Of a stretch of DNA of 64,000 nt, positions 31,439 to 35,340 are shown piece by piece. The notes beneath the pieces were generated by a model, which did not search any database, was not told the DNA's origin, and worked only from the letters and a program-made list of their open reading frames with translations. The DNA is from Promethearchaeota archaeon (GTDB lineage: Archaea > Asgardarchaeota > Hermodarchaeia > Hermodarchaeales > Hermodarchaeaceae). Numbering within the stretch: the stretch's first letter is position 1; the number at the start of each line of letters is the position of its first letter. Where the stretch lies: NCBI GenBank assembly GCA_048938385.1, contig JBHLMG010000002.1, positions 1-64,000 on the forward strand, written 5' to 3'. The position numbers and the translations under genes are program-made.

Positions 31439-32818
31439 TTGGAGGAAGAAATCGTGGATTCTCGTGACCTTATCATCGTTGGCGCAGGTCCTGCAGGTGC
31501 CCACTTGGCAAACCGAGCAGCACAACTCGGACTGGATGTTCTCCTATTAGAACGGCTTCCACACGACCGAGTTGGAGACAAAGTGTGTGGTGAAGGGATT
31601 GCCCTGCACCACCTCAAAAATGCCGGAATTCCTTATCCGGTGGGTAAAGAACTTGGTAACACTATCAACGGAATTGACATTTACCCTCCCAGCATGAAAA
31701 ACTATGTCACTGTGAGTCAACGGATGGAAGGAGAGCCCTGTGACGGGTGGACTATTGATCGCCTCTATTTCGGTCAACGCCTCCTCAAATATGCTGTAAA
31801 ATCAGGCGTAACAATTCATGATAACGCTCATGTACTTGAACCGATTCAGGACAACGGTACGATCATCGGTGTCAAATATAAGGACATCAAAAAGAACCAG
31901 TTGAAGGAAGCGTATGCCAAAGTTACCGTTGACGCTAGCGGGATGTCAGCCACATTACGACGTAAAATACAACATCCTTTCATTGAACGCACCATTGCTC
32001 TCAGCGACCAAGCCGTCTGCTACCGAGAGATTCTCGAACTCCAAAAGCCCTTCGAACCTGCCGACCGCTGTTGGATTATCATGGACGATCGGTACAGTCC
32101 AGGTGGCTACACATGGATCTTTCCTCGTGGCGAGAGAATCGTGAATGTGGGTCTCGGCACACAGGGAGGTTGTGGGCACAAGCCCAAAGGACTTTACCAA
32201 CAATTCAAAACGAATAATCCAATCTTTAAGGGAGCCAAGGTACTTCATGGTGGAGGTGGTGCTGCACCCATCCGGCGACCCCTTTGGAGCTATGTAGCCA
32301 ATGGTGTAGTTTTCATCGGGGACACCGCCTGTCATGTTAATCCCATTCATGGCGGCGGAATAGGTTCCTCCATCGAAGCAGGGCATGTCCTTGCTCCCAT
32401 TATTAAAACCGCTATTGAAGCCGATGATGTTTCCCTTGAAGGGCTATGGCAGTTTAATATTGAATACAATCGGGAACATTACGGACAAAAAATTGCCTCT
32501 CTTGATATAATGCGTCGACTACTCCAGGAAGTAGGAAATGAAGAATTCGAATATGTTATCAACAATCGTATCATTACAACCGATGATTTACTCCGTGCTA
32601 ATGCTGGAGAGGGTATTCAACTGTCTGCAATGGATAAAGCCAGTCGGTTCCTTCGGGGGCTGAGCCGGTTAAGGTTACTTCGGCGAATCCAGAAGGCATC
32701 AAAAGCGATGGGTGAGATGCTTCATCTTTACCAGAACTTCCCTGAAACACCAGAGACTTTTCTCAACTGGAAACAGCAAATCAAGCAAATCTACTTGGAT
32801 ATGGGTTACCAACCCTGA
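31439..32818 (+). CDS. Geranylgeranyl reductase (DGGGPL reductase-like)
   Basis: IVGAGPAG, KVCGEG, PGGYTWIFP, NVGLG, GDTACHVNPIHGGGI. Confidence 0.9.
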   Translation: MEEEIVDSRDLIIVGAGPAGAHLANRAAQLGLDVLLLERLPHDRVGDKVCGEGIALHHLKNAGIPYPVGKELGNTINGIDIYPPSMKNYVTVSQRMEGEPCDGWTIDRLYFGQRLLKYAVKSGVTIHDNAHVLEPIQDNGTIIGVKYKDIKKNQLKEAYAKVTVDASGMSATLRRKIQHPFIERTIALSDQAVCYREILELQKPFEPADRCWIIMDDRYSPGGYTWIFPRGERIVNVGLGTQGGCGHKPKGLYQQFKTNNPIFKGAKVLHGGGGAAPIRRPLWSYVANGVVFIGDTACHVNPIHGGGIGSSIEAGHVLAPIIKTAIEADDVSLEGLWQFNIEYNREHYGQKIASLDIMRRLLQEVGNEEFEYVINNRIITTDDLLRANAGEGIQLSAMDKASRFLRGLSRLRLLRRIQKASKAMGEMLHLYQNFPETPETFLNWKQQIKQIYLDMGYQP

Positions 32819-32904: not shown

Positions 32905-33813
32905 TTGATGGTGGTTCCCTTGGATTCTGATGTAATCCTGAACGCACACACTCGGCATGTTACGGCTCTTCTTTTCACTCCTGATAAAACAGTATTGCTT
33001 TCAGCTGGTATGGATAACCTCATTCAAATGTGGACGATTCCTGATTGGATCCAATCCAAGTCATTCTTCGGGCATACAAATAGCGTGAATGCCCTTGCGC
33101 TGACAGCCAAGTCTGACTTCATGATTACTGGTTCAACAGATAATACCGTCAGGGTTTGGCACTTTCCCTCTGGTGAAATTAAACACATACTAAGTGGCCA
33201 TACAAAGACAGTATCTGCTGTCGCCGCGTCTCCAGTAGCGAACTACATCGCGACTGGTTCTTACGATGGGACGGTGAAGGTATGGGATGTAGTGTCTGGC
33301 GTGGAAGTCTTTTCCTTATCAGAGATTGGGCGAAATGTGAGTTCAGTAACATTTTCCCCTGATGGACGAACCTTGGCTGCAGGCGGTTTAGGTTCGAATT
33401 TCTATCTTTGGGCTCTTCCTTCCGGTGAGCTTTGGAAGCAAATTGATGCTCATGAAACGGCGGTAAATTCGCTTGCTTTTTCACCAAATGGTGGTTTGTT
33501 TGCTTCGATTGGGTATGAACAACGCCTTAAGATATGGTCCACAGAGACCTGGCAAGAAGTTCATTCTATTGCCTTAGAATCTCGGGGAAATGATATGGCA
33601 TTTACTTCGAATAGTAAAAAATTGGCTGTGGCCATTGATTACGGGGTGCGTATTTGGAATGTCCGGACAGGTGAAGTTGATGTGCGATATGAGCTACCAG
33701 TGAAGGGAGTTTATGCTGTAGCAGTCTCGCCAAAACGGCGTTGGTTAGCTGTTGGCTCTGCTGATGGGAAGGTTTGGATCTGGGAGATTCGAAAAGGTAA
33801 GAAAACGAAATAG
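32905..33813 (+). CDS. WD40-repeat beta-propeller protein (~7 blades)
   Basis: Repeated (G/A)H...S.D..V..W units at ~42-aa spacing. Confidence 0.93.
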   Translation: MMVVPLDSDVILNAHTRHVTALLFTPDKTVLLSAGMDNLIQMWTIPDWIQSKSFFGHTNSVNALALTAKSDFMITGSTDNTVRVWHFPSGEIKHILSGHTKTVSAVAASPVANYIATGSYDGTVKVWDVVSGVEVFSLSEIGRNVSSVTFSPDGRTLAAGGLGSNFYLWALPSGELWKQIDAHETAVNSLAFSPNGGLFASIGYEQRLKIWSTETWQEVHSIALESRGNDMAFTSNSKKLAVAIDYGVRIWNVRTGEVDVRYELPVKGVYAVAVSPKRRWLAVGSADGKVWIWEIRKGKKTK

Positions 33814-33835
33814 GTTGTAAAATGGTAGTTGAAAA

Positions 33836-34043
33836 ATGGTCGAGGTCCTCGCCATCCTAGCCTAGGGGATAGGTCATCGGTTCCCCGGATGCTTTCCCAG
33901 GCATCTGCTGCTGTTACCGGGTCGGAAAAAGGAGCGAGGGCGTCGTGATTGCCTCGGCGCCCTCCACCAAGAGGCATAATCGAGAAGGATTGCCTGATCT
34001 CTTATTACCAGTAACAGGTACCCTTAGGCGAAGCCTGCTTTTT
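33836..34043. ncRNA. Candidate structured non-coding RNA (strand unresolved)
   Basis: GC-rich island between convergent genes, with multiple nested stems (see findings) and T-runs at both ends. Confidence 0.5.
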
Positions 34044-35340
34044 ATAGTGCTTGTGTATCGAAAGGCACATCTTGTGCATTTAGGTTTCTCGTAATTTCTG
34101 CTTCATTAACGCTAAAAGTCTTTGAAGGGTACAACCATCTCTGGAATCCTGATCGGAGGTTGCTCCAACTCATGGCTACTAATAACTGGAAGCCTACGAT
34201 GGATGGGGCAAACCATCGCCAGATGGCATAATCCATCCAGTATAGGGAGAAAATATCAATGTGTGTGGTTGCGGCAAAGATTACCGGGACTATCCAAAGA
34301 ACGAGGGCAAACGCACTAAGAGGTATTGGAGGAGTTCGCTTTTGTTTAATATGGCCAATAAGCCACCAACTCAAAGTTCCCCAGATGAGGATGATTTGAA
34401 GGATGAGTAGCCCATAGAAGAGAGGGATTGGAATAAAAGGAAGTACAGGGTTGGTGGGATAATAATTTGGAAAAGTTGCTGGCGCCAGTACATTGTAGGC
34501 TAGAACACCGAATCCAAACCAAAGGAACCCCGCTAAGTTCAGGATGAAAATGGGGGCGCTGGCATTCAGCATCATCTGTGGATCTGGAATGGGTTGAGCG
34601 ATTAATGTATGAAGGAGATAGAAACTCACCGCTCCTCCAAATATACTCAACAGAATCCAAATTTCACGCCATTGATGTCGCAAAAAAAACAAGACGATGA
34701 AGGCAGGAAGGGCAAACGCGTAGGTTTCTTTTATGAGAAAGGCGAAAGCGAGACCAATTCCCGCAAGCCAAGGCTTTCCTTGGTAAGCATAATGAGTTCC
34801 AAGGATGAGGAAGGGCATAGCAAACAACGATATCTGAAATAGTGGAATGATGTTGAAGAAAAAAGAGGATTGTACAAAGGTTGCAGCTAATGCTGCCCAA
34901 CCCGAGGTAGTGATTGATCGCACCGACCAAAAGGTCAGGATCAAATTCATTGCGGCTACTGATACACAAACCATAGATAGCGGAAAGACAAAGTTTGAAC
35001 CAGCCCAACCTGTCAGGAAGACCATGGGGTAGAAGATGAAGGGTGTCCGGTAAATCCGAAGGTCCCCAAGATCACCGGTCGTCAGAGCTGCATGTCGCCA
35101 CGCTGAATAGAAATCTTCACCATTCAACATATAGTAAATTACGGTCTTGTGCATAGTATCATCGTCAACACCAATGTGTGGCACAAACTGGGTGCCCCAA
35201 GAGTAGGAAAGGAACACTCCCCAAATTATGCTACATACTGCAAGCAATACGATGAACCCGAATACTCCTTCCTTCCTTAGAATAGCCCAATTTGATGGCA
35301 CAGGAGTTCTCTCTCCAAACCTGGGATGTTCTTTTTTCAT
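34042..35340 (-). CDS. Polytopic membrane protein, GT-C-type glycosyltransferase-like
   Basis: First external loop contains VDDD and YRTP; about 10 TM helices; LAFLIKE motif. Confidence 0.65.
   Translation of the reverse strand: MKKEHPRFGERTPVPSNWAILRKEGVFGFIVLLAVCSIIWGVFLSYSWGTQFVPHIGVDDDTMHKTVIYYMLNGEDFYSAWRHAALTTGDLGDLRIYRTPFIFYPMVFLTGWAGSNFVFPLSMVCVSVAAMNLILTFWSVRSITTSGWAALAATFVQSSFFFNIIPLFQISLFAMPFLILGTHYAYQGKPWLAGIGLAFAFLIKETYAFALPAFIVLFFLRHQWREIWILLSIFGGAVSFYLLHTLIAQPIPDPQMMLNASAPIFILNLAGFLWFGFGVLAYNVLAPATFPNYYPTNPVLPFIPIPLFYGLLILQIILIWGTLSWWLIGHIKQKRTPPIPLSAFALVLWIVPVIFAATTHIDIFSLYWMDYAIWRWFAPSIVGFQLLVAMSWSNLRSGFQRWLYPSKTFSVNEAEITRNLNAQDVPFDTQAL

Follow-up and report, generated by a model that had tools for sequence, protein, structure and literature searches.

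The gap between two convergent genes in the window (the whole stretch of 64,000 nucleotides that was analysed, from a Hermodarchaeota genome of the Asgard archaea) holds, as far as a comparison of sequences can tell, a gene-sized folded RNA element of ~185–205 bases, present in a single copy, conserved, and outside the catalogued RNA families. We hold with high confidence that a real conserved structured RNA element lies at this site. An earlier note on this DNA had claimed a novel ~200-nt multi-stem non-coding RNA here, and this claim is supported by conservation, by covariation and by the lack of any Rfam or tRNA match. Since the element is single-copy, has kept its position through genus-level divergence and shows compensatory changes in its helices, it is under selection. 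It would best be explained as the gene of a stable, folded small RNA whose family is new and has so far been found only in Hermodarchaeia. On present evidence the RNA is an orphan limited to one class, with a family outside Rfam, and it offers a concrete target for transcriptomics and pull-downs.

Locus and phylogenetic range

The element (33836–34046) occupies the gap between two genes that converge on it. To its left, a WD40 beta-propeller gene (32905–33813, plus strand) has its stop at 33813; to its right, a membrane-protein gene with a weak GT87 match (34042–35340, minus strand) has its stop at 34042. Further upstream lies a gene for a geranylgeranyl-reductase-like flavoprotein (31439–32818, plus strand). 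The GC content is 0.59–0.60 within the element and 0.40–0.50 on either side (~0.44), so the earlier description of a GC-rich island between convergent stop codons was borne out (0.60 vs ~0.44). The stems and motifs listed in that description could likewise all be read directly from the sequence at the positions given for them.

Using BLAST and a covariance model, we found one copy in the window's own genome and one copy per genome in 14 of the 19 Hermodarchaeia genomes, in each case at the same locus. The class set of 19 genomes represents one family with two genera. Three further sequences came from metagenome contigs, in a single metagenome pattern scan. The gene order at the locus is flavoprotein gene, WD40 gene (in the main genus only), element and convergent membrane-protein gene; the flavoprotein and the membrane protein are syntenic in both genera, with 74% and 50% amino acid identity, respectively. 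The second genus keeps the RNA although it lacks the WD40 gene, to which the RNA is therefore not tied. Outside the class, the covariance model, run over 151 Asgard genomes, returned nothing in the 132 others, and BLAST, run over 400, found none in the ~380 others, its five marginal hits all being rejected by the model. The earlier note had also named dispersed copies as the sign of a miniature transposon (MITE); with one copy per genome, always syntenic, the element is not a MITE.

Five genomes of the class gave no hit. In two (G011 and G002) we could not locate the neighbouring gene in the assembly, in another two (G009 and G016) the contig ends before the expected start of the element, and in G017 the site holds a divergent sequence that the model did not recognize, with the contig ending nearby. 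With the neighbour gene missing, the contigs ending and the G017 site divergent, these five genomes do not establish absence. In G017, which belongs to the second genus, we observed a GCCTCC/GGAGGC hairpin followed by T5 at the position of the RNA (L130:2560–2820), with the contig ending ~120 nt further on.

Immediately to the right of the octamer TTTTTATA that closes the element, the DNA at 34044–34075 of the window is unusually conserved and carries an inverted repeat. In the main genus it reads GTGCTT..AGGCAC and falls within the last codons of the membrane-protein gene; in the second genus (L019:1650–1795) it reads GTGAT..ATCAC and falls in a 145-nt non-coding spacer. This conserved inverted repeat may be a protein-binding site or part of a promoter.

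Folding, covariation and anatomy

Taken alone, without its relatives, this sequence gives weak evidence above chance. The folding z-score that the earlier note had put forward as a check came out differently for the two scales at which it was calculated: the minimum free energy (MFE) of the whole stretch is weak (z = −1.3 on the plus strand and −0.5 on the minus strand), and the 137-nt core reaches −2.3 on the plus strand. The 5′ part has conserved letters, with a z-score of ~0 on both strands relative to shuffles. The case above chance comes from the relatives, which show conservation and compensatory changes.

We counted covariation in an alignment of 17 sequences based on a covariance model built here (R1). 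In this alignment, 90.8% of cells are paired, and nine pairs have changed on both sides, compared with 4.4 ± 1.2 in shuffled alignments, of which 0 of 500 reach nine; controls in which the partner was slid along the sequence gave 1–4 two-sided pairs. Three of the pairs with two-sided change belong to helix H5 (UA/CG and AU/GC exchanges) and five, changing across clades, to helix H6. The covariation looked for after the earlier note was therefore found, in H5 and H6 (9 vs 4.4 in shuffles). The conserved helices are H4, the long-range H5 and H6.

Read along the plus strand, the element begins with hairpin H1 (33836–33855; ATGG-T-CGAG / CTCG-CCAT), which is kept in both genera with some two-sided changes and is not clearly more stable on either strand. 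On the minus strand U5 follows H1 directly (A5 at 33832–33836 on the plus strand). Next, at 33856–33885, comes a variable hairpin, H2, together with a block that the alignments show to be conserved, GGTCATCGGT..TCCCC, which on the minus strand reads GGGGA..(C/U)GATGA(C/U)C. Two pairings can be read from the sequence in this region, the 5′ side of an outer stem (GCCTAGGGG at 33860–68 with CCCTTAGGC at 34021–29) and GGGGA (33865–69) with TCCCC (33882–86).

Hairpin H4 (33886–33907) has a stem of 5–7 bp around GATGC/GCATC and a nearly invariant loop, (T)TTCCCAG; the arms CGGATGC (33886–92) and GCATCTG (33901–07), read from this sequence, lie within it. With a 5-bp stem and a 7-nt loop, H4 has proportions like those of an anticodon arm's loop on either strand. 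The most conserved letters of the family are those of the H4 loop, the H4 3′ strand and the invariant CTGCTG linker next to it, and the alignments show ~19 nt around H4 to be invariant.

H5 (GTTACNNN / NNNGTAAC) is a long-range helix around H6. Its 5′ strand, GTTACCGG (33913–33920), pairs with 34008–34015, where the 3′ strand CCAGTAAC is followed by an invariant A34016; in the sequence itself the pairing can be read as CTGTTACCGG (33911–20) with CCAGTAACAG (34008–17). In this genome C33918 stands opposite A34010, which is a mismatch on the plus strand and a G–U pair on the minus strand. The linker between H5 and H6 holds an A5 run (33926–33930), equal to T5 on the minus strand, that is A4 in most relatives. 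H6 (33936–33964) is a 10-bp GC-rich hairpin with arms GAGGGCGTCG (33936–45) and CGGCGCCCTC (33955–64) and a variable loop, as seen in both sequence and alignment. The alignments further show an invariant CCAAGAGG after H6 (33967–33974). Then comes H7 (33973–33994), formed by GGCA/TGCC and their neighbours; the main genus has it, the G006 clade has a different form and the second genus lacks it. Also read from the sequence in this arm are AAGAGGCA (33969–76), TGCCT (33991–95) and CTCTT (33999–34003).

The earlier note had further proposed a built-in alternative pairing, a pseudoknot or switch, based on the octamer GATTGCCT, which can be read twice here, in the H6 loop (33947–54) and at 33988–95. 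This proposal was not supported by the comparison with relatives. The duplication of GATTGCCT occurs in this genome only, and the H6 loop of the relatives differs (GGAGGTTAAG and others); the outer stem (33860–68/34021–29) and the AAGAG/CTCTT extension of H7 also occur in this genome only and have no counterpart elsewhere. With the second GATTGCCT, the outer stem and AAGAG/CTCTT all confined to one genome, the switch or pseudoknot is left without comparative support.

Strand of the RNA and competing readings

We lean slightly towards a gene on the minus strand, a reading to which we give even confidence. Transcription would proceed on the minus strand from a TATA box at 34046–34039 (TATAAAAA as read from that strand) and start at about G34015. 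The first 135 nt would then form the conserved core, in which H5 closes a junction with H7 and H6 and H4 follows; the RNA would continue through the GGGGA..GAUGA block and two small hairpins and end at the U-tract after H1 (33836–33832), giving a length of ~185 nt.

We favour this orientation because of the TATA spacing, an indel-free spacer, A·C mismatches that become G–U pairs, the fold energies of the second genus and the position of an insertion. On the minus strand, the distance from TATAAAAA downstream to GTTAC, the first invariant block, is exactly 23 nt, against 22 nt in the second genus and 25 nt in the G006 clade, and a conserved T|G step stands at the predicted start; at the genes for RNase P RNA and SRP RNA in this genome, 23–24 nt separate the TATA box from the RNA. 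The 23-nt stretch in between (34016–34038), which would be a promoter spacer on the minus strand or a 3′ tail on the plus strand, has variable letters and a fixed length, with 0 indels among 12 main-clade genomes at ~50% identity and lengths of 22 and 25 nt in the other clades. Inside the helices we counted ~13 independent A·C mismatches on the plus strand, each equal to a G–U pair on the minus strand, vs 2–3 G–U pairs on the plus strand, and at pair 38:143 of G014 a two-sided change ends as a minus-strand wobble. The consensus-structure energies of the second genus are −19 and −12 kcal/mol on the minus strand vs −7 and −2 kcal/mol on the plus strand. Finally, three lineages carry an insertion of 190–240 nt that, in the minus orientation, lies behind the core, and the core is still conserved.

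The same RNA may instead be made on the plus strand, as a transcript of ~205 nt (33836–34038) ended by the T5 tract at 34039–43, an alternative that we consider a tangible possibility short of a probable one. Such an RNA might be the trailing part of a WD40/flavoprotein transcript, or a weak promoter close to the stop codon of that gene might produce it; it might then be released as a 3′-UTR-derived sRNA. The octamer TTTTTATA (34039–34046), which overlaps the stop of the GT87-like gene at 34042–44, can be read as a T5 terminator on the plus strand or as a TATA box on the minus strand. Of the 17 sequences, 16 share it unchanged, the remaining one having TTTTTTAAA. The T5–6 tract at the plus-strand 3′ end is itself invariant and resembles the way in which the RNase P and SRP RNAs of this genome end, in CC-T5. 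It comes after a weak hairpin in 34016–34038 (AGGC-GAA-GCCT on the plus strand) that is slightly more stable on the plus strand in 16 of the 17 sequences. An archaeal stable-RNA gene would be expected to have a TATA box ~24–31 nt ahead of its start, an oligo-T terminator and a discrete transcript; here the TATA spacing agrees with the minus strand, and the T5 with the plus strand.

Runs of T inside the RNA also bear on the choice. On the plus strand there is none above three; the minus strand has a T4 within the core of 11 of the 14 sequences, and in this genome a T5 (33926–30). By comparison, none of the RNase P, SRP and 16S RNAs in these genomes contains a T5 or more than a single T4. The minus-strand T5 at 33926–30 counts against full-length transcription on the minus strand in this genome. 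Structured RNAs are usually biased to A over U at unpaired positions, and the unpaired positions on the plus strand are 33% A and 19% U, so that its unpaired regions are A-rich. The plus strand also has the better core MFE z-scores in the main genus (mean −3.0 vs −1.8 on the minus strand), a U·G at H6 position 64:87 that is kept in nine genomes, and an upstream gene that always has the same orientation, with most genomes having no T5 between that gene and the RNA. Against plus-strand synthesis, no conserved promoter was found for it, the helices would need to accommodate many internal A·C mismatches, of which the second genus by itself has five, the 190–240-nt insertion would separate the 5′ part from the core, and the WD40 gene is missing in the second genus.

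Several further comparisons did not separate the strands. No A-rich BRE precedes the TATA box on either strand, unlike at the tRNA, SRP and RNase P promoters. The consensus-structure energies over all sequences (−20.2 and −19.5 kcal/mol) and RNAalifold give no overall strand preference, nor do the totals of 28 G–U and 17 A·C cells. Fold energies are not usable as a strand test, since the outcomes of MFE z-scores, consensus-structure energies and RNAalifold conflict among themselves and from one genus to the other; the G–U pairs in H1 and H2 that favour the plus strand in the RNAalifold table were not upheld by per-sequence folding. The motif GTGCTTGTGTAA, which stands beside the TATA box and also upstream of one tRNA gene, occurs 13 times genome-wide with at most one mismatch, as expected by chance.

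There may also be no dedicated RNA gene, the element being a structured overlap of two convergent 3′ UTRs that works on both strands as a two-way terminator, an insulator or a protection of 3′ ends; we regard this as unlikely. Most genomes have no T5 of its own for either flanking gene, so that both transcripts probably enter the element, and the frequent occurrence of both G–U (28) and A·C (17) cells, along with equal fold energies, is as expected if both strands matter. However, the loops and linkers, namely the ~19 nt around H4 and CCAAGAGG, are the most conserved parts and would be needless in a terminator or stability element, and a 135-nt three-helix junction far exceeds what archaeal termination needs.

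We find it hardly credible that the element represents a mobile element of the MITE kind or belongs to a TnpB guide-RNA (omega RNA) element. A dispersed repeat is indeed inserted at the locus in G010, G005 and one metagenome contig, yet this repeat is a separate sequence, and the element itself has a single copy in each genome, at a syntenic locus, lacks terminal repeats and has no adjacent tnpB; copy number already contradicts the reading. For the same lack of a tnpB gene at the locus we rejected TnpB omega RNA as an identity of the element, which would be expected 3′ of tnpB or as a dispersed gene-less derivative.

The inserted repeat, unlike the element, has the feature of a TnpB omega RNA. 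The insertions measure 190–240 nt (L009:1250–1497 in G010, L021:1300–1500 in G005, and L065 on the metagenome contig), and their insertion point is identical in non-sister lineages, after ..ACTC(C) and before (CC)CTGATGC, between the 5′ part and the core. Their core of ~140 nt is a dispersed repeat with 1–18 copies per Hermodarchaeia genome; the single copy of this genome is at G000:C49:1939–2077. Omega (guide) RNAs are encoded directly behind the TnpB C-terminal domain, on the tnpB strand. Full-length copies of the repeat adjoin the end encoding the TnpB C-terminal zinc ribbon (PF07282), on the strand of tnpB; the tnpB-linked copies include G006:C17:12261–12607, G010:C37:8249–8553, G008:C7:48035–48382 and G016:C100:3199–3557. 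Given this position behind tnpB, the insertions in the locus look like gene-less omega-RNA mini-transposons, with the putative omega RNA on the minus strand of the locus. The minus-strand flanks TCAGG and TCAAG may explain the reuse of one insertion site.

A small protein gene, which would use minus-strand ORFs of 33–123 codons with an ATG, TTG or GTG start before CCTCTTGG, has next to no probability: a start codon does stand at the same place in all clades, but close relatives differ in frame through 1-nt indels, in the CTGCTG linker and in the loop of H4, while the downstream nucleotides are identical, which argues for RNA rather than protein, and the varying ORF lengths (33–123 codons) and double changes that preserve hairpins are not expected of coding sequence.

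Possible function and relation to known RNAs

Our best guess at function is that the RNA would serve as a protein-bound scaffold in a small ribonucleoprotein, or would act in trans, with its invariant loop and linkers as the recognition surface. We favour this because covarying helices hold invariant unpaired letters and because the RNA is single-copy and has been retained across the divergence of the genera. In a minus-strand gene for a stable RNA, as preferred above, the helices would position the invariant unpaired letters for reading by a protein or a partner RNA, and the candidate recognition sites would be the H4 loop with the linker that follows it, the CCAAGAGG/CCUCUUGG segment and the U4 tract.

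A more specific proposal, which we rate as very improbable, is that the RNA would be the core of a Hermodarchaeia-specific ribonucleoprotein acting on the translation apparatus, with the invariant, anticodon-arm-sized hairpin H4 and a single-stranded, Sm-site-like U-tract between helices (minus strand) docking to the ribosome or to an Lsm/L7Ae-type protein. If true, the RNA would count as an Asgard analogue of small nuclear or nucleolar RNAs. On the plus strand, the H4 loop region (UGCUUCCCAGGC) is complementary to the universal 16S rRNA segment GCCUGGGAAGUA over 12 bp with one G–U. Pairing with rRNA was rejected, as the GCCUGGGAAGUA match is at about chance level (about one such hit is expected over the targets searched), and so is a 13-nt match to 23S rRNA seen in one genome only.

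The earlier note had recognized no tRNA, 5S, SRP, RNase P or riboswitch here, and dedicated searches agree. Rfam gave 0 matches in the 64-kb window at gathering thresholds; at E values of up to 10, the best match in 33700–34200 reached 15 bits, against thresholds of 35–43. ARAGORN found no tRNA at the element, and a literature search found no paper on Hermodarchaeota non-coding RNAs. A riboswitch or 5′ leader was also dismissed on gene arrangement, since both neighbouring genes point into the element and none lies downstream of it on either strand.

The RNase P RNA and SRP RNA genes of this genome, which sit on other contigs, resemble the element in layout: an 8-nt TATA box ends 23–24 nt ahead of the RNA, the body is GC-rich with several helices, and a T5 lies close by. 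They differ from it in that the element has no sequence or covariance-model similarity to either, and in that both are universal whereas the element is restricted to one class. A likeness in kind is offered by the Hgc families of Rfam, which are orphan, lineage-specific structured archaeal sRNAs found as GC-rich islands. The element shares with Hgc-type sRNAs its nature as a GC-rich island in an AT-richer genome, as a stand-alone structured RNA and as one of narrow phylogenetic range, but no Rfam family, Hgc included, matches it even at E values of up to 10.

The minus-strand block GGGGA...(C/U)GAUGA is reminiscent of the K-turn RNAs bound by L7Ae. We therefore scanned both strands of 14 sequences for K-turns, defined by a canonical stem, a 3-nt bulge and tandem sheared G·A pairs present family-wide. 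A local minus-strand candidate, AUCA-GGG-GA..GA-UGAU, appeared in 7 of the 14. Neither this genome nor G014, G006 or the second genus has its C-stem (AUCA/UGAU) intact, and this stem shares letters with the H4 3′ strand and hence competes with H4. A plus-strand candidate (GGAGCG / CGC-CAA-GA) showed no covariation. Unlike the box C/D and H/ACA K-turn RNAs, the element has no D box at guide spacing and no ACA at pocket distance.

The guide RNA classes were examined individually as well. For a box C/D sRNA we looked for a C box (RUGAUGA) and a D box (CUGA) with a terminal stem, a 12-nt guide before D/D′ and a size of ~50–70 nt; (C/U)GAUGA is there on the minus strand, but neither a D box with a pairing terminal stem nor C′/D′ at guide spacing accompanies it. 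A box H/ACA RNA would have a pseudouridylation pocket, an upper stem bearing a K-turn or K-loop, and ACA 14–16 nt from the pocket. An ACA does follow H5 on the plus strand, but the nearest candidate for the upper stem, H7, finishes 20 nt off, and all of H6 would fall within the 5′ side of the pocket. For sRNAs released by the splicing endonuclease, whose two flanks would form a conserved bulge-helix-bulge (BHB) motif, a loose scan on both strands of the 14 sequences gave only scattered, non-conserved hits.

Two observations were made on other RNA genes of these genomes. The 22 tRNA genes found in the window's own genome (L043–L064) all encode the 3′ CCA, and their promoters consist of an A-rich BRE followed by TTTWWA, which ends 25–29 nt before the mature 5′ end. 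In G006, a member of the genus, the 16S rRNA gene (G006:C71:619–4212; L123) spans ~3.6 kb for a 1.48-kb model and probably carries large insertions or introns.
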